Positions 1,361-63,768 are shown, numbered from the stretch's first letter. The stretch is 64,000 bases of DNA from Candidatus Daviesbacteria bacterium (GCA_030699125.1 JAUYKM010000009.1:291365-355364); one strand, 5' to 3'. The notes: generated by a model from the sequence alone, not told the origin. Numbers and translations: made by a program.

Positions 1361-2855
1361 CTGAATGGGATTTCGCAGGGTTGAAAATTTTCTGACTCTG
1401 CGCGGGTGGGGGCGCGCAGAGTGCTGCAAAGCCCTGATTGTAGCTGACTTCAAGGTGCCGATTAGTCAAAAAGTAGTTCGAGCCGACAGTTTTTGACAAG
1501 AATGCTAATTCTTGGCTTGTATTTTTTGCGCGCGCGATTTTTGCGCACGAAAGTGCGCTACCAATGAAGTTTTTGAACGGTTCGAGCCGACTCGAACCTT
1601 CTGTTTGAATTTTGGTAATTTCCTCATTTTTTCTTAACTTTTCTTCAAAAAGTTCGTTCTTTTTATTCTTGTAAGTTTGAGCATCAACAACACCATCTAA
1701 GTAACTATCAAGTAATATATTTAATTTTTGATCCAGCAGTTGTATTTCTTCTACTAACCTCTTTAGGTTTTGATCTTTATTTTGTTTTTCTAAAAGCTCA
1801 TCCCTTTCCAGCCATTTATACCAATCATCCGCCCACTTTTCAGGCAGAGCTGCATCTGAGACAATCTTTGTTATTTGCGACTCTAATTCAACTTCTGTGA
1901 TCGGTTTTTGAGAGCAAGAGCCAAGTTTTTTAGTACAACTGTAGTAAGTATATTCAACTTTCACTCCCAAGGATTTAACTAATTTAAATTTCTTTTCTCC
2001 AGTCACACTTGCACCGCATTCTCCACACCTTACCAGCCCTAAATACGAGAGATTATGCTTATTATATTTAGGCCTAGATATTATCTTGAACTGTTTTTGT
2101 ACTCGATCAAACAGCTGCTTAGAAATGAACAACTTATGTGTTCCATCATAATATTCTCCTCCATAATAGATAATTCCAATGTAGAATTTATTACTTAAAG
2201 CATTTTTAAGCCTGTCTATTTTTAAAGGATTTCCAAATTTATCGCTAAATCCATTTTTATGAAGAAACAAACAGATATCAGTAAATGTTTTATCACCATC
2301 TGCAAAATACTCAAAAGCTTTTCTTAAAATCCTGGATTTTTCAGGATCAATCTCTATAGTTCCCAATTTTTCATTATTTATATATCCCCAAGGAGCTTTG
2401 GCGGGCAAGACACCATTCCTTAGCTTTTGTCTTAAACCTCTTTTAACATTCTCACTTAAGTTGTCTATGTAATATTTAGACTGACCAAAGGAAATATTTA
2501 ACATAAACTTTCCTTGAGGGGTATTTTCAAACCAAGAGGTAGGAAATTTTAAATCTAACAACTGACCAGTATCTAAAAGATAAATTATTTTTCCTCCATC
2601 AATTGAATTTCTAGCTAATCTATCCGGGTGCCAAGAGATAATACCTTGTGCTTGCCCTTTTTCAACTAACTGTAAAAGTCTTTCAAACTGTTTTCTACCC
2701 GGAGTTTTGGCAGTCTTTGCTTCTTCAATAAATTCAACTATCTCCAAGCCCTCACGTTGGGCAAATTCGGTTAGTTCATCAACTTGTGCCTCTATGGAGA
2801 GAATTTGTTTATCAGCCTCATCTGTTGATTTTCTGCAGTATGCTATATATTTCAT
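1296..2855 (-). CDS. large serine recombinase (resolvase catalytic domain + recombinase domain + zinc ribbon + coiled coil)
   Basis: N-terminus MKYIAYCRKSTDEADKQILSIEAQ carries the resolvase-type catalytic Ser motif. A CGECG..C..C zinc-ribbon and a long C-terminal coiled coil are present. The last ~65 codons of the ORF run through IR-A and antisense to tRNA-Gly, so the true stop is uncertain. Confidence 0.8.
   Translation of the reverse strand: MKYIAYCRKSTDEADKQILSIEAQVDELTEFAQREGLEIVEFIEEAKTAKTPGRKQFERLLQLVEKGQAQGIISWHPDRLARNSIDGGKIIYLLDTGQLLDLKFPTSWFENTPQGKFMLNISFGQSKYYIDNLSENVKRGLRQKLRNGVLPAKAPWGYINNEKLGTIEIDPEKSRILRKAFEYFADGDKTFTDICLFLHKNGFSDKFGNPLKIDRLKNALSNKFYIGIIYYGGEYYDGTHKLFISKQLFDRVQKQFKIISRPKYNKHNLSYLGLVRCGECGASVTGEKKFKLVKSLGVKVEYTYYSCTKKLGSCSQKPITEVELESQITKIVSDAALPEKWADDWYKWLERDELLEKQNKDQNLKRLVEEIQLLDQKLNILLDSYLDGVVDAQTYKNKKNELFEEKLRKNEEITKIQTEGSSRLEPFKNFIGSALSCAKIARAKNTSQELAFLSKTVGSNYFLTNRHLEVSYNQGFAALCAPPPAQSQKIFNPAKSHSERDTGIGPAALPWEGSVLPLY
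1358..1460. repeat. Inverted repeat A, left arm (103 bp; perfect inverted copy of 2960-3062)
   Basis: The reverse complement of 1358-1460 equals 2960-3062 with no mismatch. The arm abuts and overlaps the last 3 nt of tRNA-Gly and contains a 9-bp internal hairpin, CTCTGCGCG..CGCGCAGAG. Confidence 0.9.
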
Positions 2856-2959
2856 GGCAGCGTTACTATTTTTCTTTCCCTCCTAAAAGGAAAAGTTCTT
2901 TCTTTCTAAAACATAAATTTTTGCGTGCGCTTAATCGTTTTTTGTTTTCTTTTTTACTA

Positions 2960-3062
2960 CGGCACCTTGAAGTCAGCTACAATCAGGGCTTTGCAGCACT
3001 CTGCGCGCCCCCACCCGCGCAGAGTCAGAAAATTTTCAACCCTGCGAAATCCCATTCAGAGC
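2960..3062. repeat. Inverted repeat A, right arm (A')
   Basis: Perfect reverse-complement copy of 1358-1460. It is directly contiguous with IR-B, overlapping it by 5 nt. Confidence 0.9.
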
Positions 3063-3163
3063 TCGTTTACGAAAGCGCTCGAACTCAATTCCAATCGACG
3101 CATTAGTTGTCGGCGCCCAGCTCACGTTCGGTCCCAACCTTTTTATTTAATCCCTACCTTTTC
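3058..3163. repeat. Inverted repeat B, left arm (106 bp)
   Basis: The reverse complement of 10899-11004 matches 3058-3163 with 3 mismatches. Confidence 0.85.
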
Positions 3164-3256
3164 CGAAGCTCTGAAACTGGAGGCTCGAACATCCCGCACC
3201 AACTGGTGCGTGATACAAAAAACGCAAAAATTTTAAAGAACTTTTCGCACCCTAAA

Positions 3257-13254: not shown

Positions 13255-13326
13255 GCCGACTTAGCTCAGAGGTAGAGCAGCTGTTTCGTAAACAGCAGGT
13301 CACTGGTTCGATTCCAGTAGTCGGCT
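13255..13326 (+). tRNA. tRNA-Thr (anticodon CGT)
   Basis: Acceptor GCCGACT/AGTCGGC, D-arm GCTC-AGAGGTA-GAGC, anticodon stem GCTGT/ACAGC with loop TTCGTAA, T-arm ACTGG-TTCGATT-CCAGT. Confidence 0.8.
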
Positions 13327-13425
13327 CAAAATCCTTAAGCGTTGGAAATTTTCGCGCACTTTTTTTCCATGAATTCTGAATCATTATTTTTGTTATTCAA
13401 TCAATGGGGATTAGGTTTTTTGACC

Positions 13426-13785
13426 TTACTGTAGATGCTGTTTAACTTTATTGACTATTTCAACCAAAGTAACATCTGATTTAATAAAGTAATCAACCGC
13501 CCCTAATTTTTTGGCTTTTTCTATATCCTCTTTTTGGGAGAGGTTGGAAGCAACAATCACAGGAGTTTTAATTCCCTGTCTACTAATTTCTGATAAAACA
13601 AAGAATCCATCTTTCTTGGGCATCACTAGATCCAAAATAATTAAATCAAAGGATTCCTTGGATAGAACAGCTAAAGATTCTTCACCACTAAAAACTACAC
13701 TTGTTGAATACCCTGCGGAGTTTAATTTCAAACTCATCACCCGGGCCAGCGCTTTCTCATCTTCAACTATTAAAATCTTTTTCAT
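13426..13785 (-). CDS. response regulator, receiver domain only (CheY-like)
   Basis: MKKILIVEDE ... DLVMPKKDG phospho-acceptor architecture. 119 aa. Confidence 0.75.
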   Translation of the reverse strand: MKKILIVEDEKALARVMSLKLNSAGYSTSVVFSGEESLAVLSKESFDLIILDLVMPKKDGFFVLSEISRQGIKTPVIVASNLSQKEDIEKAKKLGAVDYFIKSDVTLVEIVNKVKQHLQ

Positions 13786-14176
13786 ATATTCTCAGTGTTT
13801 TCAGCTTTCTTAGATTCTAATACTTCTTGTATTTTTTCGAGGATTTTTTCCAGAGGATTATTTGCCTTGACTAGATAGTAAGATGGCTGATCCCTAACTA
13901 CATTAGACAAAAGTGGATCATTAACATCAAAATTTGTAAGAATTATAATGGATGCTTTCTTGCCCCATACGTCTTCTCTTATCTTATGCATGACACTCAT
14001 ACCGTCCATTTTTGGTAAGACATTATCAAGTAGAATCAAATCCGGATGTTCGCGTAGAGCAATTTTTAATCCTTCCTCGCCATCTCTTGCTTCAAGGACA
14101 GAAAAACCTTCATTGGTAAGTTTATTACTGAGTGCGTTCAGTACTGGTGCTTCATCTTCCACTATGAGTATTTTCT

Positions 14177-14180
<4 letters not shown>
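13782..14180 (-). CDS. response regulator, receiver domain only (CheY-like)
   Basis: MKKILIVEDE ... LLDNVLPKMDG. 132 aa. Overlaps the neighbouring genes by 4 nt, consistent with an operon. Confidence 0.75.
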
Positions 14181-16393
<2,213 letters not shown>

Positions 16394-40196: not shown

Positions 40197-40270
40197 GCCG
40201 CGTTCGTCTAGTGGCCCAGGACGCCGGGCTTTCATCTCGGAAATCACGGGTTCGACTCCCGTACGCGGTA
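40197..40270 (+). tRNA. tRNA-Glu (anticodon TTC)
   Basis: Acceptor GCCGCGT/ACGCGGT, anticodon stem CCGGG/CTCGG with loop CTTTCAT, T-arm ACGGG-TTCGACT-CCCGT. Confidence 0.75.
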
Positions 40271-40277
40271 CTTTGAA

Positions 40278-41045
40278 CTATTCAACCAAGATTGAGGCCA
40301 TCATGGTGTTAGCATGAGCGCTGCAGTGGTAGGGATAGATTCCTGTTTGGTTAAAAACTAGGGAAAATTGGTCTCCATTTTTTAAGGCCTTTGAATTTTG
40401 ATCTGGATAATAGGTGTGCGCTGGATGGGATTCTGTATTAACGTAATGATCCACCTCATCCTGGTTGATCCAGGTTATTTTAGTTCCCTTGCTGATGCGA
40501 ATATTTTTTGGTTCAAAGTTGATATTTTCAAGATTGATAGTGACCTCTTTTTTATCAGTTAAATCCGTGTAAGTGGAAGATTGTGTACGGTCAATTTTAA
40601 ACTGAAAATTACCATCATGACAAGTTTTATCCGGCCAACAGGCATTATAGTTAACAGTATAAACTCCATCAGGTGAGTTTGGATTCATCTTTCTCCTCAT
40701 AGATAATTTATTGTCATCAATGATGGTTTCATCTAGTCCGTATTCTTTCCCGTTCATGGCGATAGAGATTGAAGACGGGGGAGCCAAATCAAAATTAAAA
40801 TTTATTACCACATTTATAGGTACTCCTACCAAGACAGAACCATGCTCGGGAGTATTACTCTCATAATGGGCACTTTTTTTAGGATCATTAAACCGTATGG
40901 TGGTATCTAAAGTCCGGGTTGATTCCTGAGGTAGAGTAGGTTCCGGGGAAGATGAGGGAGTCGATTTATTACCAATAAGAAAAAATCCTCCTAAAATAGC
41001 AGACAAAATTGCTATAATGATTCCTACAACTAGTTTATTCATCAA
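40278..41045 (-). CDS. cupredoxin (plastocyanin/azurin-type blue copper protein), membrane anchored
   Basis: N-terminal TM segment and C-terminal type-1 copper ligand motif YPYHCSAHANTMM (C-x2-H-x4-M). Confidence 0.65.
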   Translation of the reverse strand: MMNKLVVGIIIAILSAILGGFFLIGNKSTPSSSPEPTLPQESTRTLDTTIRFNDPKKSAHYESNTPEHGSVLVGVPINVVINFNFDLAPPSSISIAMNGKEYGLDETIIDDNKLSMRRKMNPNSPDGVYTVNYNACWPDKTCHDGNFQFKIDRTQSSTYTDLTDKKEVTINLENINFEPKNIRISKGTKITWINQDEVDHYVNTESHPAHTYYPDQNSKALKNGDQFSLVFNQTGIYPYHCSAHANTMMASILVE

Positions 41046-41100
41046 ACTTACCCTAACAAATTATTCAAATTGAATCAAATGAAGTATAATATTTGAGTCT

Positions 41101-41172
41101 GGCCCGGTAGCTCAGCGGTAGAGCAGAAGCCTTTTAAGCTTTTGGTCCTGGGTTCGAATCCCAGCCGGGTCA
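41101..41172 (+). tRNA. tRNA-Lys (anticodon TTT)
   Basis: Acceptor GGCCCGG/CCGGGTC, D-arm GCTC-AGCGGTA-GAGC, anticodon loop CTTTTAA, T-arm CTGGG-TTCGAAT-CCCAG. Confidence 0.8.
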
Positions 41173-41216
41173 CAAGTTAACAATTGTTAAAAATAGATGA
41201 AAGAAGTTAACAGTAG
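41170..41216. repeat. 47-bp direct repeat, copy 1 (overlaps last 3 nt of tRNA-Lys)
   Basis: TCACAAGTTAACAATTGTTAAAAATAGATGAAAGAAGTTAACAGTAG matches 44484-44530 at 42 of 47 positions. Contains the palindrome TTAACAATTGTTAA. Confidence 0.7.
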
Positions 41217-41260
41217 ATATGTAATTTGTATTAGCTCCATATTTTTGCAATAATCATAGT

Positions 41261-42130
41261 ATGGATATACCTGTTCGAGAGCAAAGTGCTACTGAGACTC
41301 CAGAGAATCAACTACCCCAAAATAACAAGCTCAATCAAAGGGGATCCGTCCCAATTCTAATTGGGATGATTATTTTACTGATTGTTGTTACAGGAGGGGC
41401 ATATTATTTGGGAACATTAAGAGAGAAGCTTCCATTACAAAATCCAGTGGTTTCTTCCCAAAATCCACAACCCACGCCCGTTCCTAGTACTCCCAGTATA
41501 AAGGTAACAGGAGTTTTAAGAAATAGTGGTTTAACTAAAGATGAAAAAGTTACTCTTAATTTAAATTCCAGTAATTACCAGATTACAGATTTTGGGATAG
41601 CATCAGACAATTCTAAAATAATGGGGTATTTCCTGGAAACAGATAATTCAGAGTATAGAGATCTGGAGGGGAAATGTGTAGAAATAACAGGTAGTATCAA
41701 ACAAAGTTGGGAAGATTTAATTAATAATCAGTTTGAAATTAATAACAAATATACTTATCAACGATCTACTATGATTCCACAGAGTATAAACCAACTTAGT
41801 AATTCTGCCTGTAATCCCTATTCAGGAAACAGGACGGTATCAGATTCAGAGATAGGTAATAAAAGAGTTTTGAAAGGTACTGTAGCAGGAACACAAAGGC
41901 CTGCTCCCGATATAGGTTATGATTACCAGTTAAACTTAGCAACTCCTCTTAATGAGGAATGGGGCTCAACAGGTGGTCCTGTGAAAGTAGATAAAATTGA
42001 TATCTCTCCCTTGAATAATTCTGTTTGGAATATTTTAGAAGATAAGATGGGGACAATTGTAACGGTAACTGGGTACAAAACCTGGGGCTATGCTGAATCA
42101 CAATATCTTTTGATTATTGATGTAAATTAG
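41261..42130 (+). CDS. membrane-anchored secreted hypothetical protein
   Basis: N-terminal TM segment (VPILIGMIILLIVVTGGAYYLG) then a Ser/Asn/Thr-rich extracellular region. 289 aa. Confidence 0.45.
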   Translation: MDIPVREQSATETPENQLPQNNKLNQRGSVPILIGMIILLIVVTGGAYYLGTLREKLPLQNPVVSSQNPQPTPVPSTPSIKVTGVLRNSGLTKDEKVTLNLNSSNYQITDFGIASDNSKIMGYFLETDNSEYRDLEGKCVEITGSIKQSWEDLINNQFEINNKYTYQRSTMIPQSINQLSNSACNPYSGNRTVSDSEIGNKRVLKGTVAGTQRPAPDIGYDYQLNLATPLNEEWGSTGGPVKVDKIDISPLNNSVWNILEDKMGTIVTVTGYKTWGYAESQYLLIIDVN

Positions 42131-42132
42131 TC

Positions 42133-42158
42133 TTGGCCACAAGGATCGAAAATATATT
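42133..42158 (+). promoter_or_regulatory. conserved upstream motif GGCCACA(A/G)GGATCGA, copy 1, 30-55 bp upstream of the NYN gene
   Basis: TTGGCCACAAGGATCGAAAATAT matches TAGGCCACAGGGATCGAGCATTT at 44612-44637. The 15-nt core is identical apart from 1 mismatch. Confidence 0.35.
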
Positions 42159-42186
42159 TTCATCAAATAAGTGCTAGAATAAATTC

Positions 42187-42960
42187 ATGTCTAGTTATTA
42201 TTACCTTGATGATCCCAAAAGTGAATTAGGATATACCCCTGTTTCAGAGGAGGAGATGCATGGTGCCATTTTATCAATTGCCAAAAGTCACGGTTTAAAC
42301 ATCACAGATAAAATGATTTTAGATCAGATTCAGAAAAAGGAATCAAAATCTAAAAATACCAAAAATAAAACTAATCTCTATATTGATGGAACCAATCTTT
42401 TTGCTGGACAGAATGAGTTGTTTGGACCGAATAAACACTTATCGTTTAGTTTTCTAATCCAGGAAATTAAAAAATTAGTTCCAGTAAATCATATCCTTTT
42501 CTACGCTTCTTATATGAATCAGAAAAATAGAATAAAACTGACTGAAGACAGAAAAAAGCTGATTGCTGCAGAGGCGTTATTTTATCGGGAAGTAAGAAAT
42601 ACTAAAGGTGTTGAATTTTACCGGGGTCACCGCTCTCCAACTTCTGGAAAGGAAAAAGGAGTTGATGTGCATTTATCGGTTGATATTGTCAAAGATATTT
42701 TTCTAGGGAACTGCAATCAGATTGTTATTATGACTGGCGATGCTGATCTTATTTACCCTCTGGAAATAGTCAAAATGCTTAAAATCCCAACTCATGCTAT
42801 TTTTCTTCCTAACAGATTTTCCTTGGAAATGGCATACAAAGCAGATAAAGCGTTTGTACTTAATTTCTCAAATAAATTTAAGTCAGATAGAAAATTGCCG
42901 AGGCAGTTGAAGGTTGTGAGTATAAAAAAGCCCCGTATGGTTAACATACGGGGTAAGTAA
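42187..42960 (+). CDS. NYN-domain (LabA/PIN-like) predicted ribonuclease
   Basis: LYIDGTNLF ... VIMTGDADLIYPLE matches the NYN acidic-residue signature (IDGxN ... GDxD). Confidence 0.55.
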   Translation: MSSYYYLDDPKSELGYTPVSEEEMHGAILSIAKSHGLNITDKMILDQIQKKESKSKNTKNKTNLYIDGTNLFAGQNELFGPNKHLSFSFLIQEIKKLVPVNHILFYASYMNQKNRIKLTEDRKKLIAAEALFYREVRNTKGVEFYRGHRSPTSGKEKGVDVHLSVDIVKDIFLGNCNQIVIMTGDADLIYPLEIVKMLKIPTHAIFLPNRFSLEMAYKADKAFVLNFSNKFKSDRKLPRQLKVVSIKKPRMVNIRGK

Positions 42961-43362
42961 ATGTATTTAACCAAAAATAAGGCTATTTGTCAATGTCTCA
43001 TAGTTAAAATTTATTAAAAATTGTTATTGCACTTTGCTATGCATCTTTTAGACCAAAAAGATAAACGAATTCTGAGCTTAGACCGTCACGAAGGAATAAT
43101 TCAGAGAATTTTCTTAGTCTGTTTAAGGTACTAGCGGGATCACCACGCTTGATTGTGAAGGTGTAAATTGATTGATTAGCTTGAAAGCAGGCGATAATCG
43201 AGAGTTCGAAAAGCCATTAAAGTGGTATTTCAATCCTTCAGGAAAAATTAGCCTCGGACAATCCAATAGATCTTCTCATGGGTTGCTAAAACAATCCAAT
43301 CTAAAAGTTCGAATAAATATATTTCTTGCAAAATATAATTTTTCCTGAAATACTGTAAGAAG

Positions 43363-44388
43363 ATGGACGACCAACAAAAAAATATACTTAATTCTCAAGA
43401 GAACTCAAAAGACCCAGTTGTTAATAAAGCATTATCAATTAAAGTCCTACAAGTTCTATTCATAGTTTGGGGTAGTTTAAGTTTATTTTATTTTGTAATT
43501 AATTCAATATTTGGTTCTAACTGGTTTTCTTATATTCCCAGTCCCCTAAGTTATCTATTATCACTGTTAATGATAGTAGACCCAGGGGTATTTTATATCT
43601 TGGGTGTAGACACTAGGTTATTTCCATTAGTTGTTGGTGTTGGAGCTCTTTTAAGTGGTTTAGGAATACTTCAATCCTCCAAAAATAGTTTAAGCATAGC
43701 TAGTCTTTATATTTGCGCACTTTTTTTGATTATTATTGGATATTTCGTAACCACTATTCCTTCACTGCCTAGTCTTTTAAAAGCCATTTTGGGGCTTAAC
43801 TCTCCCTCTCAAGGGTGGGATTTTACAGATTTGATTATAATCTCCGCATTGGGAGAACTCATTTTAGCTAGTACATGGATTCTTTTAATCTTTGCTTTAA
43901 TAAAAATACAAAATTTATTAAAAACTAATACTTCCTACAAAACATCTACATTTTTTCAATTTGAAAGGCTTGGTAAAGTAGCATATTTACCATTAATCTT
44001 AATGTTGATTTGGTTTTGCTATGGTGTCTACTCTTATTATCTGTCCTCAAAACCTAGAGATGAATACGGGGTTCGGGTTAGTACTAAATCCTCTAAGATA
44101 ATTTCTGAAAGCAAGACATCTCCAGATAATTCTTATACTGTTAAGGAATCTCCCAATCCGCCTAAGCAAATAATCTTTGCTGTATATTACAAGGATGGTA
44201 ATGTTGTAAGAGAGATTGCTTACAATATCAAGAAAGAGATTGTTGATAAAAGCCGAACGATAGGTTGTGATTGTGATATTTCATTCAAAGGTTGGATAAA
44301 TAATTACACTTTTGCCATAAAGACAATTAAGGAAGATGGTCAAGAGTATGAAGACGTGATAGATATCAAAAAGTTAGTAGCTGAATAG
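43363..44388 (+). CDS. multi-TM membrane protein with C-terminal soluble domain (hypothetical)
   Basis: Six or more hydrophobic helices in the first 230 aa. No catalytic motif recognised. Confidence 0.45.
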   Translation: MDDQQKNILNSQENSKDPVVNKALSIKVLQVLFIVWGSLSLFYFVINSIFGSNWFSYIPSPLSYLLSLLMIVDPGVFYILGVDTRLFPLVVGVGALLSGLGILQSSKNSLSIASLYICALFLIIIGYFVTTIPSLPSLLKAILGLNSPSQGWDFTDLIIISALGELILASTWILLIFALIKIQNLLKTNTSYKTSTFFQFERLGKVAYLPLILMLIWFCYGVYSYYLSSKPRDEYGVRVSTKSSKIISESKTSPDNSYTVKESPNPPKQIIFAVYYKDGNVVREIAYNIKKEIVDKSRTIGCDCDISFKGWINNYTFAIKTIKEDGQEYEDVIDIKKLVAE

Positions 44389-44483
44389 ATTATAAGAGTT
44401 ATGAAATACCAAAATACTCTTCCAATCCTTGATGGTTTGGATAAATTCCTCCATAATTATGTACGTGAGAACAGAATCGTAGT

Positions 44484-44530
44484 TCACCAGTTAACAATAG
44501 TTAAAAACCGATGAAGGAAGTTAACAGTAG
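44484..44530. repeat. 47-bp direct repeat, copy 2
   Basis: TCACCAGTTAACAATAGTTAAAAACCGATGAAGGAAGTTAACAGTAG matches 41170-41216 at 42 of 47 positions. Confidence 0.7.
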
Positions 44531-44611
44531 TTGATTAAGTGACATCAAATACACATCTTTGACAAACATCTTGTTTAAGTGCTCAGGGTAAACGACTTTG
44601 GTGATTCATCT

Positions 44612-44637
44612 AGGCCACAGGGATCGAGCATTTACTT
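44612..44637 (+). promoter_or_regulatory. conserved upstream motif GGCCACA(A/G)GGATCGA, copy 2, 40-65 bp upstream of the Fic gene
   Basis: See copy 1 at 42133-42158. Confidence 0.35.
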
Positions 44638-44675
44638 CTTGCAAATCGTCTAATATTCGTCTATAATACGTCTAT

Positions 44676-45734
44676 ATGTTTAATCCTCGCTACACAATTA
44701 CTGATCGGTTATTAAGGAACATTAAGAGAATTAGTACCTTGGTGAGTGAACTAAATAACAGGCGATTTCCTCACGTTGTGTTACTGGAATTTGAAAAAGC
44801 AGCTAGAGCTGTTTCTACTTATGCCTCAACTAGTATTGAAGGCAACCCCCTTCCTCTAACAGAAGTTAAAAAAATCCTTAAATCTAAGCCTGCACATATA
44901 AACAAATTTGATACTGGCGTATTAAGAGATAGCGAAAAGGAAATTTTAAATTACAATCAAGCACTCCAGAATTTGAATGAGAAGCTTGAAAAAACGCAAG
45001 TCAAATTATCTCTTGATTTAATATTAAAAATTCAAAAACAAATTACTGAAGGGCTGCTACCTAAATTTGAATCTGGAAAACTGCGAGAAAAACCAGTAGT
45101 TGTAAACGATCCAAGAACACGAAAAGTTATATATTTACCTCCTGACGCAAAAGATGTGGGGAAACTTATAGAAAACCTTGTTGAGTTTGTGAATAGTAAC
45201 CGAAACGAGATTGATCCACTTATTTTAGCTGGTATTTTCCATAAGCAGATGGTAATAATCCATCCGTTTATGGACGGGAATGGTAGGACAACACGTCTTG
45301 CTACAAAAGTATTACTTGCTGAAATGGGATTAAATACTTTTAACCTATTCAGTTTTGAAAATTACTATAACAAAAATGTTACTCGCTATTTTCAAACTAT
45401 TGGCGAGCATGGAAATTATTATGAATTGGTAGATAAAATTGATTTTACCTCTTGGCTAGAATACTTTACCGAAGGAATTATTGATGAACTATTAAGAGTT
45501 CAAAAACTGTTGCCAGAGGTTGGAATAAGTCCGGAAACTCAACTTAAACCTTATCATATAAAAATCCTTGAATTTATAAAAAATAAAGGATTTATTGCTG
45601 ACCGTGACTATGCAAAGTTAGTTGACCGGGCAAAGGCAACCAGAGCACTGGATTTTAAAAAATTGATAGAGTTAGGTTTAATCAGCAGAAAAGGTAAGGG
45701 CAAAGCAACTCATTATGTTTTAAGAGAGAAATAG
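44676..45734 (+). CDS. Fic family protein (AMPylation/Fic-DOC fold) with C-terminal winged helix
   Basis: Canonical Fic motif HPFMDGNGRTTRL (HxFx[D/E]GNGRxxR). The C-terminal KATHYVL segment is wHTH-like. Confidence 0.8.
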   Translation: MFNPRYTITDRLLRNIKRISTLVSELNNRRFPHVVLLEFEKAARAVSTYASTSIEGNPLPLTEVKKILKSKPAHINKFDTGVLRDSEKEILNYNQALQNLNEKLEKTQVKLSLDLILKIQKQITEGLLPKFESGKLREKPVVVNDPRTRKVIYLPPDAKDVGKLIENLVEFVNSNRNEIDPLILAGIFHKQMVIIHPFMDGNGRTTRLATKVLLAEMGLNTFNLFSFENYYNKNVTRYFQTIGEHGNYYELVDKIDFTSWLEYFTEGIIDELLRVQKLLPEVGISPETQLKPYHIKILEFIKNKGFIADRDYAKLVDRAKATRALDFKKLIELGLISRKGKGKATHYVLREK

Positions 45735-45745
45735 CTATGGTACTC

Positions 45746-47119
45746 TTAACTCCTGATCTGTAGAGGCAGTACTTTATCCAATAATCCTTCTACCTTTTTT
45801 AAATAAATTAAATTATATTTGGGAAAGTAGAGAAAGGTAGCCGGGGCATCTTCCAAAAGAGTTTTTTGGAAATCATAATAACTTACTTTTCGGTCCTCCT
45901 CTTTGACTGTTTTTCTGCCATCTTCCAGATCCTTATCAACTCTCGCCGATGAATATTTGGTCAGATTAGTTTTAATTTGGGATGAGTGCCAAAGCACATA
46001 CTGATCAGGATCTCTGGGGATACTCTGAGTAATCAAAAGCATCTGGAAATGTTGTGGAACTCCTGATTCTACCCTAATATTGACATTAAAACCGATCTTT
46101 TTCCACTCTTCAACTACTATTTGAGCCACCCTCTCCAAGTTAGGTGTGGTAGTTATAGTTAAGTCAGATTTTAGTTGTTCCTCAGATAAAGAGGATTTGG
46201 CCCGCTCCAGCGCAGCCTGAGCCTCTTCAATATTAGAAAGGTACTTTTTACTATCTTTGTCATGAGCCCAGGAATTAGTAGGATAGGGGTTATTGGCAAT
46301 ATCTTCTCCCTCAATTCGGGGGGCAGCAAAGCTTAAAGCTTGCCTTAACGATCTATTTCCCAATATAGGATCTTCCAGAGAATATAAAATGGTTACAATT
46401 TTAGTGAGGTCGCCTACCTGCTTATTCTTTACCTGATGGCTTTTTTCCACTGCATCAGGATTACTCATCCCCATAAGTGTTTGTACTTCTCCCAAGTTAA
46501 ATCCAGCTATTGCCACTCTTTCATTGGGATAAAAGCGAATGAGCAATTTAGGAAGATTATTTTCTTTTGGGGTTAAAGTTAATTTGGTAATAAAAATTCT
46601 GCTTTTCTCAACCCTGTCCAGTTTATAAGGACCTGTGCCTGTGAGGGTTCCCTTTTTAAATATTGGTTTGGTTAAAAGTGAAGGAAGAGGTGAATAGGGT
46701 TCTTTTAGCTTGAATTGGATAGTTCTTTCATCAGGGGTGGTTATTTCGACATCAGGAATATTAAATGATAAGTCAGATGCCTGAATGGGACTACCATCAA
46801 TCCAATAGATATTATCCCTTAAGTAAAATTTAAAAATTGTGGCATCATTATTTATATCCCAGGAGGAAGCGAGATTAGGCTCCATTTGATCAAAATCGCT
46901 CACTTTCACCAACCCTTCGGACAGTAGATTAGTTACCTCCAAAGGCAGGTTGTGTTCCTGATATGTACCTACCATACCCTCCAGCAATGTATTCTGAGGT
47001 CTAAAAATGGTAAATTTCCATTGCAAGAGAAGGGATATAGCAATAATAGTAAGTGTAAGTAAGAACCACTTGCTATGCTTGCCGATAAATTTTTCCGTAA
47101 TAAGAAGCGCGAGCTTCAT
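45746..47119 (-). CDS. ABC transporter substrate-binding protein-like (family 5, peptide/nickel type), membrane anchored
   Basis: N-terminal TM segment then an SBP_bac_5-like region (..NLASSWDINNDATIFKFYLRDNIYWIDGSPI..). Shorter than canonical OppA. Confidence 0.45.
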   Translation of the reverse strand: MKLALLITEKFIGKHSKWFLLTLTIIAISLLLQWKFTIFRPQNTLLEGMVGTYQEHNLPLEVTNLLSEGLVKVSDFDQMEPNLASSWDINNDATIFKFYLRDNIYWIDGSPIQASDLSFNIPDVEITTPDERTIQFKLKEPYSPLPSLLTKPIFKKGTLTGTGPYKLDRVEKSRIFITKLTLTPKENNLPKLLIRFYPNERVAIAGFNLGEVQTLMGMSNPDAVEKSHQVKNKQVGDLTKIVTILYSLEDPILGNRSLRQALSFAAPRIEGEDIANNPYPTNSWAHDKDSKKYLSNIEEAQAALERAKSSLSEEQLKSDLTITTTPNLERVAQIVVEEWKKIGFNVNIRVESGVPQHFQMLLITQSIPRDPDQYVLWHSSQIKTNLTKYSSARVDKDLEDGRKTVKEEDRKVSYYDFQKTLLEDAPATFLYFPKYNLIYLKKVEGLLDKVLPLQIRS

Positions 47120-63605: not shown

Positions 63606-63677
63606 GGTCCGGTAGCTCAACGGTAGAGCAGTGCCCTCTTAAGGCATTGGTTCTGAGTTCGAATCTCAGCCGGATCA
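63606..63677 (+). tRNA. tRNA-Lys (anticodon CTT)
   Basis: Acceptor GGTCCGG/CCGGATC, D-arm GCTC-AACGGTA-GAGC, anticodon loop CTCTTAA, T-arm CTGAG-TTCGAAT-CTCAG. Confidence 0.8.
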
Positions 63678-63768
63678 CCCAATGATAGAGGTAACATCTT
63701 TAATTATCACCTCCTTGGATATCTTTAAAATTAGTGCCAATTCCCTGAAAATGATAAAATGAATTCTG

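Follow-up and report, generated by a model that had tools for sequence, protein, structure and literature searches.

A candidate tRNA-anchored array of small integrase-less cassettes in Candidatus Daviesbacteria and related Microgenomates

Introduction

Elements that target tRNA genes, genomic islets and the streptococcal cis-mobilizable elements (CIMEs) dock at tRNA 3' ends, accrete in tandem, deviate in composition and carry accessory or defence genes. The integrase-less islets and CIMEs have att-like ends and no recombination genes, which implies mobilisation in trans. Other elements enter the 3' end of a protein gene, such as e14 in icd of E. coli, which carries a replacement 3' end, and elements that integrate at the 3' ends of some protein genes restore the reading frame. 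Integrons and the clusters of attC sites lacking integrases (CALINs) are arrays of short, mostly co-oriented and apparently promoterless cassettes of one to three genes, with conserved separators and a fixed recombination point. In the streamlined genomes of Prochlorococcus, tycheposons form tRNA-adjacent islands in which successive integrations push older elements inward, with degenerate remnants and cargo units; a tyrosine recombinase is their defining gene, and partial tRNA copies separate them (bioRxiv 10.1101/2020.12.28.424599). Here we analyse a stretch of 64,000 nucleotides from a Candidatus Daviesbacteria bacterium (GCA_030699125.1, JAUYKM010000009.1:291365-355364), called the window in the following, in which a tRNA-Lys(UUU) gene and two copies of a 47-nt repeat lie in the region 41.1-45.7 kb. 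The original prediction for this region was either one decayed integrative element of 3.3 kb between two drifted att repeats or a duplicated regulatory element.

On balance we think it probable that the region is a tRNA-anchored array of small integrase-less cassettes, part of a Microgenomates-wide family, which would be inserted site-specifically by a recombinase encoded elsewhere. The two repeats are the leading ends of two different units and not the two ends of one, because both are copies of the same module (M1) and the first unit ends on the right with another module (M2).

Results

The repeat and its two copies in the window

The two copies, M1a (41170-41216, plus strand; TCAC followed by AAGTTAACAATTGTTAAAAATAGATGAAAGAAGTTAACAGTAG) and M1b (44484-44530, plus strand; TCAC followed by CAGTTAACAATAGTTAAAAACCGATGAAGGAAGTTAACAGTAG), align without gaps with 42 of 47 positions identical. 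A degenerate 42-nt pattern spanning both has two matches in the window, with 0 expected from 100 shuffles. Extending the ungapped alignment to 78 nt gives 76% identity, which is at chance level past about nt 51. M1a begins inside the last 3-4 nt (TCAC) of the tRNA-Lys(UUU) gene, because this plus-strand gene, starting at 41101 in both predictions, ends at 41172 (Rfam, 73.5 bits) or 41173 (ARAGORN). The acceptor stem of this tRNA is native and well paired, and its 3' bases ...GGGTCAC are the left docking site, or core, of the first unit, cassette A. The palindrome is perfect in copy 1 (TTAACAATTGTTAA) and has one mismatch in copy 2 (TTAACAATAGTTAA). The imperfect direct repeats 3.3 kb apart, their start in the tRNA 3' end and a palindrome in each copy had therefore been described correctly.

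Sought outside the window, the 47-mer was found, with hardly any change in sequence, in the Daviesbacteria genome L002 and in 26 metagenome contigs, mostly from groundwater, which were returned by a scan with a pattern of 23 specified bases. A nhmmer profile of M1 finds the module in all 26 contigs and has only two matches in the window (41164-41216, E 3.2e-17; 44480-44530, E 1.4e-14). In L002, whose proteins are about 60% identical to those of the window, the tRNA gene is of a different isoacceptor, tRNA-Lys(CUU), and the M1 behind it has a single mismatch to copy 1 of the window. Copy 1 is thus nearer to the L002 copy than to copy 2, from which it differs at five positions, and the idea of att copies that drifted after one duplication does not hold.

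Apart from its 14-bp palindrome, M1 contains two AGTTAACA direct repeats spaced 30 nt, and a promoter scan found no sigma-70-like promoter inside it. In most loci 4-60 nt separate M1 from the start of the first gene, which lies on the same strand, and the cassettes therefore look promoterless. Several other identities for the module were considered and rejected. On inspection, the palindrome resembles a dif/Xer site only in parts of the outer arms and has no central region. A dispersed repeat of the repetitive extragenic palindrome or miniature inverted-repeat element kind does not fit two M1 and one M2 copies in 64 kb, which always abut the TCAC core and show no fold signal. A phage origin of M1 and M2 was rejected as well, with no match in IMG/VR and only unrelated giant-virus repeats found with a looser GTTAAC pattern.

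A common breakpoint after the TCAC core

M1 always starts directly after ...TCAC. In ten distinct loci this TCAC closes an intact tRNA gene, either tRNA-Lys(CUU), tRNA-Lys(UUU) or tRNA-Arg(UCU); these genes differ in sequence and their acceptor stems are native and covarying. In five loci it is the end of an M2 copy, and in another five, M1b of the window among them, it belongs to degenerate sequence. The sequence before M1b is a degenerate core (GTAGTTCAC) that is neither tRNA nor M2. The degenerate sequence resembles a decayed tRNA in L016, L027 and L032, with alignment scores better than that of the window, and partial tRNA-like remnants are found only in these three loci and L029, being doubtful in the window. 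For a decayed tRNA upstream of M1b, the alignment scores were no better than chance in what is a weak test, and this candidate was dropped.

Altogether there are four junction classes with one breakpoint after TCAC, namely tRNA|M1, M2|M1 (L014, L017/21/26, L023, L025/30 and L028), M2|other (the window, L002, L036, L027 and others) and tRNA|other (the window at 63679, and L001). At the tRNA genes the junction lies directly after the discriminator base and a C. The M2|M1 junctions are dyad-like (ACTAG-CGGGGTCA-CTAGT). M1 shares only TCA(C) with the tRNA, and the M2 end shares about 8-11 nt (...GCGGGATCAC) with tRNA ends. One pair of loci shows how sharp the boundary is: L022 (tRNA-Lys|M1-C84) and L032 (decayed tRNA-like|M1-C84) are 94.5% identical from exactly TCAC. 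M1 travels with its right-hand neighbour, because this match begins at TCAC despite the different left partners.

An occupied and an empty site

A second tRNA-Lys gene of the window, tRNA-Lys(CUU) at 63606-63679 (plus strand), stands behind a CvpA-like gene. Its counterpart by sequence is the tRNA-Lys gene of the contig L052, where the CvpA-like gene (minus strand, 67% nucleotide identity to that of the window) is followed by tRNA-Lys|M1 and a homologue of ORF289, the first gene of cassette A (76% amino acid and 81.7% nucleotide identity). In the window, GGATCAC at the end of this tRNA is followed directly by unrelated sequence (CCAATGATAG) without M1. The comparison of tRNA-Lys loci, which had been proposed as a check, therefore gave a site occupied in L052, a single contig of 1.3 kb, and unoccupied in the window.

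Within Daviesbacteria, the cargo is more similar in nucleotide sequence than its surroundings. Fic has 82.3% identity, the stretch from tRNA through M1 to ORF289 81.7% and the gene X remnant 81.4%, compared with 65-73% for flanking genes (CvpA, UvrB, LexA and others). The GC content is 0.31-0.35 across 41250-45750 and 0.36-0.42 in the flanks, so the low-GC tract runs past copy 2 and takes in the Fic gene.

Module M2 and gene X

M2 of the window (43003-43143, plus strand; nhmmer E 5.2e-35) is the trailing module of cassette A and ends with ...GTCTGTTTAAGGTACTAGCGGGATCAC. We aligned 17 distinct M2 copies (alignment A1). All of them end with ...GTCTGTTTAAGGTACTAGCGGGnTCAC, and their similarity stops exactly after TCAC, whatever sequence comes next. 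On the minus strand all 17 copies have an open, stop-terminated frame encoding (G/C/S)DPASTLNRLREFFELFLSDGLNSEFAYTFGLKDA, and third codon positions are the most variable (0.315 versus 0.164 and 0.172 at the other two; permutation p = 0.0024). Judged by this pattern, M2 is minus-strand coding sequence. In almost all copies the frame is truncated a few codons upstream of the core, and a start codon is often absent. The last approximately 27 nt of M2 are invariant, third positions included, and are shared with an otherwise divergent M2 subfamily (L013, L025b, L032a), which points to a DNA-level site overlying the coding remnant. Reading M2 as a small plus-strand open reading frame (ORF; MHLLDQ...) was rejected, because L023, L020 and L002 have stops in that frame and its codon-position pattern is wrong.

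Where the body of the corresponding gene survives, in the window and in L051, M2 continues its reading frame. We call this gene X. In the window its remnant lies on the minus strand at 43040-43338, according to translations and tblastn, and its last 35 codons are M2 (...GDPASTLNRLRKFSELFLRDGLSSEFVYLFGLKDA*). The X protein P0155 of L051 matches the window (tblastn, E 1.5e-26) with residues 68-134 at 43338-43135 (59% identity) and residues 132-166 at 43144-43040 (77%); the frame is broken by a frameshift near 43140 and, further upstream, by an in-frame stop. Apart from the 183-amino acid X ORF of L051, this is the longest X remnant among the examined loci. The seemingly non-coding gap at 42961-43362, overlooked in the original prediction, is thus occupied by a minus-strand pseudogene remnant of the same repeat system.

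Gene X has no family in Pfam, NCBIfam, PHROGs or PDB sequences, in a phage tblastn search, in a word search of 5.8 billion or in a HMMER search of 1.84 billion representative proteins. The latter gave only 19 small ORFs, each with the M2 peptide behind an unrelated N-terminus. The AlphaFold model of X has a pLDDT of 48 and is unusable. At 42931-42953 on the minus strand there is also a 9-bp GC-rich hairpin with a T-run, inside the NYN 3' end and about 90 nt downstream of the X stop, which may be the former terminator of X.

A structured RNA or attC-like hairpin for M1 or M2 was ruled out by fold z-scores and Rfam. The M2|M1 DNA folds no better than shuffles (z = -0.9 and -1.1 on the two strands), nor does the M2 RNA (z = +0.17), and Rfam finds only tRNAs in the window region and 12 loci. 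M1 and M2 are therefore double-stranded DNA sites or coding remnants rather than structured RNAs. Separately, some M2 and M4 copies carry an inserted GC-rich palindrome of about 22-30 nt (CCGCTTCGCCAG...CGAGGCGAGC), in either orientation and in otherwise AT-rich DNA. Such sites are at about 3700-3740 in L017, in M2 copy c and at about 2790 in M4 of L026, at about 3300 in L018 and at about 690 in L012, with none in the window. The palindrome looks like a tiny hairpin insertion element.

Units in the window and in related loci

The units are 0.9-2.3 kb in size and hold one to three genes. Complete or tandem examples are tRNA-Arg|M1-protease-M4-Fic-M2 in L018/35, tRNA-Lys|M1-two genes-M2|M1 in L014, M1-M23 peptidase-M2|M1 in L023 and ...Fic-ORF-M2|M1-anchored protein-M4-NYN fragment-M2 in L026. 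The corresponding unit of the window is tRNA-Lys|M1-ORF289-M4'-NYN-M2, which is led by M1a. ORF289 (41261-42130, plus strand) encodes a 289-amino acid protein with an N-terminal membrane anchor, predicted to be extracytoplasmic, of a Microgenomates-specific family without Pfam match. Its homologues at 35-40% identity (L037-L043) have no linkage to M1 or M2. A short M4 copy (42125-42160, plus strand; ...TCTTGGCCACAAGGATCGAAAAT), recognised by alignment with full M4 copies, forms the junction module before the gene of an NYN-domain protein (42187-42960, plus strand; Pfam: PF01936, E 3.4e-12; PADLOC candidate defence family HEC-09, E 3e-10), which is a predicted RNase.

Between the two units lies the gene of a multi-transmembrane protein of 341 amino acids (43363-44388, plus strand), with no family match and no homologue in any related locus. 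Behind M1b, a full M4 copy (44577-44650, plus strand) precedes the Fic gene (44676-45734, plus strand), which is the cargo of a truncated cassette B. The gene content given before, with a membrane-anchored ORF, NYN and the multi-transmembrane protein between the repeats and Fic after them, was borne out. The suggestion that NYN and Fic are a toxin-like pair was not, since the two genes are in different units and co-occur only in the window and in the L017/L021/L026 contig family, again in different units.

Downstream of Fic follows the convergent gene of an SBP_bac_5 protein. The Fic gene of the window lacks the usual M2 because the stop codon of this gene is 12 nt away. The SBP_bac_5 protein has relatives in three genomes at 59-60% identity, two of which are Candidatus Daviesbacteria (Microgenomates, candidate phyla radiation (CPR)), and in those relatives the interval to tRNA-Lys is also filled with unrelated genes. 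On the other side, tRNA-Glu(UUC), a minus-strand gene for a CopC-cupredoxin fusion and tRNA-Lys(UUU) are grouped at 40197-41173, and L020, L034 and L046 have a mechanosensitive (MS)-channel-like gene between the same tRNAs. The slot upstream of tRNA-Lys is therefore also variable.

Module M4, the Fic gene and other cargo

M4 precedes Fic in Levybacteria (L046-50) and Daviesbacteria (L044, L053, L018, L026), with nhmmer matches in L044-L050 and L053, and is also found between genes inside other units. In the window it overlaps a sigma-70-like site (TTGCAA-17-TATAAT, 44639-44667) that lies nine bases ahead of the Fic start. The order M4-Fic-M2 recurs as a unit. Across classes, Fic proteins with 82-89% amino acid identity are found in more than 100 database clusters, whose source names cover at least six Microgenomates lineages (Davies-, Levy-, Gottesman-, Roizman-, Curtiss- and Blackburnbacteria), compared with about 60% for the SBP_bac_5 protein; the Fic of the window has tblastn matches at 85-87%. 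More than 4,300 proteins score E <= 1e-60, and this Fic (the window; P0033-P0152) is far better conserved than neighbouring housekeeping proteins. Many of the contigs that carry it are short, as though assemblies break at Fic. L018 has two Fic paralogues within 14 kb, at 2177-3211 and 13269-14303 (86% and 74% amino acid identity to the Fic of the window), and only the first is inside an M1...M2 unit.

The Fic protein of the window (Pfam: PF02661, E 4.7e-18) is SoFic-like, with PADLOC SoFic matched at E 7.9e-44 by residues 12-348 on positions 25-350 of the 361 in the model; its score against the NCBIfam SoFic equivalog is 67.5 bits, compared with a cut-off of 550. SoFic is a single-gene anti-phage defence. 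In E. coli, the 47-amino acid protein encoded downstream of Sofic is its antitoxin, AS1 (PMC12249575). The Fic of the window covers the PADLOC model over its full length and, as in the E. coli pair, most Microgenomates copies have a small conserved frame directly downstream, the M2 peptide. Unlike the SoFic and AS1 pair, however, this frame runs convergently to Fic and in many copies has no start codon, which makes an antitoxin role of the M2 peptide doubtful.

Fic and NYN are candidate defence or toxin-like cargo, judged by their families. In the other units, whose cargo was assigned by eye from sequence without a family search, we noted a SIR2-like gene pair, an AbiEii-like nucleotidyltransferase, an Eco57I-like restriction-modification protein, HigA-like helix-turn-helix proteins and an M23 peptidase, as well as apparent housekeeping genes, peptide deformylase and inositol monophosphatase. 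The SIR2-like protein of about 355 amino acids (MxxPLIILGAGxS...) and its adjacent partner of 180-285 amino acids occupy the same variable slot in two unrelated arrays (L001 6465-8074; L025 8273-10287, minus strand), and the pair looks like a candidate two-gene defence module. The contig L001 (CAZVEX010000004.1) carries the label 'uncultured Gammaproteobacteria' but shares synteny and about 60-70% identity with Daviesbacteria loci (SecG-SBP, tRNA-Lys/Arg, ROK, G6PD), so that mis-binning or mislabelling of a CPR contig is probable.

Search for a recombinase

Two screens were made, one with catalytic-motif regular expressions on ORFs of at least 120 amino acids in the window and the related loci, and one by tblastn with XerD and gamma-delta resolvase queries. 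In these rough screens the window contains no recognisable recombinase, as had been claimed for an integrase. What recurs beside the tRNA genes is a GIY-YIG nuclease-family gene of 83-90 amino acids, which abuts the 5' end of tRNA-Lys, tRNA-Arg or tRNA-Glu from upstream, often with an overlap of a few bases, in seven Microgenomates locus families (L001 9021-9272, minus strand; L002 8986-9243, minus strand; L018 693-965; L027; L028 200-475; L029 303-608; L046 4111-4353, minus strand). The array of the window has no such gene nearby.

Discussion

A model of cassette insertion

In the model we favour, each cassette would have M1 first and M2 last, and M2 would duplicate the final 35 codons of X as a spare and end in a core that resembles a tRNA 3' end (...GGGnTCAC). 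Cassettes would be inserted or exchanged in one orientation by site-specific recombination at this short core, with the recombinase supplied from elsewhere in the genome or by a helper element. We infer the enzymatic recombination, its direction and any present-day activity. One docking site would be the 3' end of tRNA-Lys and tRNA-Arg genes, the other the core within the 3' end of gene X, where the arriving M2 would restore the frame of X. Such a replacement 3' end would explain why M2 has a coding-type substitution pattern and is yet always cut at the same base; together with the invariant last 27 nt or so, this is as expected from a crossover site inside a gene 3' end. In the window, cassette A (41173-43143: M1a-ORF289-M4'-NYN-M2) would sit between tRNA-Lys(UUU) and the decayed X. 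Behind the X remnant would come the orphan membrane-protein gene, then the degenerate core with M1b-M4-Fic, and then the convergent SBP_bac_5 gene. Cassette B would be related to the L018-type cassette but truncated, the protease gene and M2 having been lost.

Comparison with described systems

With tRNA-targeting elements, islets and CIMEs the locus has in common the docking at tRNA 3' ends, tandem accretion with attP-like M2|M1 junctions, compositional deviation and accessory or defence cargo. As in integrase-less islets and CIMEs, att-like ends without recombination genes imply mobilisation in trans, and the architecture would fit a cis-mobilizable element with putative att sites. It differs from tRNA-targeting elements in that none of about 50 loci has an integrase, that the sequence shared with the tRNA is about 4-8 nt and not a 3' segment of 15-60 nt, that the two end modules are different (42 nt and about 140 nt) and that the units are so small. 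A classical tRNA island or prophage remnant does not fit, because our rough screens found neither an integrase nor a remnant of one, X being the only pseudogene and matching no family, and no tRNA 3' segment is duplicated, although insertion at a tRNA 3' end and an empty site are both seen. Tycheposons are similar in being tRNA-adjacent islands of streamlined genomes with successive integration, degenerate remnants and cargo units. Unlike them, the array has no detected recombinase, and its separators are the M2 and M1 modules, derived from a protein-gene 3' end, instead of partial tRNA copies.

Integron arrays resemble the locus in their short, mostly co-oriented, apparently promoterless cassettes of one to three genes, their conserved separators and fixed recombination point, and CALINs also in the lack of a nearby integrase. 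Here, in contrast, neither strand gives an attC hairpin fold, there is no intI and no attI, and the array is anchored at a tRNA. Inspection of alignment A1 found no GTTRRRY/RYYYAAC (R''/R') box pair in M2. Elements of the e14 type are alike in that the M2 copies are spare 3' ends of X (35 codons) with coding-type substitutions and one fixed cut, but the same cassettes also dock at tRNA genes, X is mostly decayed and there is no integrase. A literature search on CPR integrons and islands and on the palindrome found nothing relevant. While tRNA-linked integrative cassettes and their remnants are of a known kind, the two-module integrase-less form that also targets a gene 3' end is apparently undescribed.

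Alternative explanations

Several observations weigh against an array of inserted cassettes. No tyrosine or serine recombinase was found in the window or in about 50 related loci with our rough screens, no circular or excised form was seen, and neither the M1 nor the M2 pattern occurs in the viral contigs of IMG/VR. The end shared by tRNA and M2 is short, a TCAC preceded by G-rich bases, and no tRNA 3' segment is seen to be duplicated as at classical att sites, the acceptor 3' strands being native and covarying with the 5' strands. The occupied and empty pair depends on one contig, L052. Retrieval with an exact pattern of 23 bases inflates the apparent invariance of M1. Cassette A cannot be called an orthologue of the L026 cassette, with which it has the architecture in common and no clear protein homology. 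Moreover, M4-Fic-M2 lies near the same tRNA/CvpA/UvrC neighbourhood in several lineages, and vertical inheritance with strong constraint could explain part of the pattern. An alternative, which we consider unlikely but worth weighing, is that M1, M2 and M4 are conserved parts of an old syntenic locus that act in cis on expression, the candidates being a tRNA-downstream operator or leader, a 3' region common to Fic and the convergent X, and a promoter of Fic. The mosaic would then have arisen between these conserved blocks by ordinary homologous recombination, gene conversion and deletion, with no need of a dedicated recombinase. It would agree with the missing recombinase and with the operator-like palindrome and direct repeats of M1, with the overlap of M4 and the conserved Fic promoter, and with M4-Fic-M2 being in the same tRNA-Glu/tRNA-Lys/MS-channel/CvpA/UvrC neighbourhood in Levy- and Daviesbacteria. 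Genes that begin a few bases past M1 in most loci might point to a leader or processing signal for tRNA read-through. However, M1 stands behind three tRNA species and also behind M2, has no sigma-70-like promoter, is much better conserved than the adjacent proteins and cannot be the promoter of the gene that follows it in L013, because that gene is convergent. Homologous recombination leaves unexplained why homology ends at the same base after TCAC, and the mimicry of a tRNA 3' end by M2 and the same chromosomal tRNA site being occupied in L052 and empty in the window argue in the same direction. For these three reasons the duplicated regulatory element of the original prediction fits less well too.

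The other half of that prediction, a single decayed integrative element (41170-44530) whose att site was duplicated at tRNA-Lys and drifted to 42/47 while the integrase was lost, is largely refuted and very improbable. Its tie to the tRNA 3' end, the flavour of site-specific integration and the defence or toxin-like cargo stand, and direct repeats starting in the tRNA, the lower GC and the missing integrase agree with it. What falls is the single bracketed element: both copies are of the left type and a distinct right-type M2 lies at 43003-43143, copy 1 is closer to copies in distant genomes than to copy 2, low GC and the conserved M1-M4-Fic order run past copy 2 to 45745, and copy 2 is followed by M4-Fic as in L018 and not by ancestral tRNA-flanking sequence. 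Improbable and purely conjectural is a breakpoint produced by 'homing' or repair after double-strand breaks made by the small GIY-YIG nucleases, or by copying primed or templated at the tRNA 3' end, with gene conversion then fixing the M1-led DNA. The GIY-YIG gene at tRNA 5' ends in seven locus families, the lack of a classical recombinase and the bases after TCA, which read CCA, CTA or CAA and recall the tRNA 3' CCA, would speak for it. But no GIY-YIG gene is near the array of the window, no reverse transcriptase was seen, and all tRNA-Lys flanks have C74 whether or not M1 follows.

Implications for Microgenomates

Members of the CPR have tiny genomes in which mobile elements are seldom recognised, and little has been established on their exchange of accessory and defence genes. 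Beyond the array itself, we tentatively propose an undescribed CPR cassette-exchange system of integron-like logic, which would use as sites tRNA-Lys and tRNA-Arg 3' ends and a core resembling a tRNA end within a host-gene 3' end, have M1 and M2 read by a remote recombinase, and shuttle defence and surface-protein cassettes of one to three genes (SoFic-like Fic, NYN, SIR2-like, AbiEii-like, restriction-modification and antitoxin-like helix-turn-helix) between lineages that are only about 60-70% identical in core genes. For annotation, the 'empty' 400-bp gap at 42961-43362 turns out to be a gene remnant, and the modules help to account for assemblies breaking there. Should the modules prove to be regulatory, they would still rank with the first conserved cis-elements reported for this group. 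If the array reading is true, it would explain one Fic at 82-89% identity across Microgenomates classes, the conserved cassette boundary would be a searchable marker of the flexible gene pool of the CPR, and recombinase families that co-occur with M1 and M2 would offer a route to the missing recombinase.

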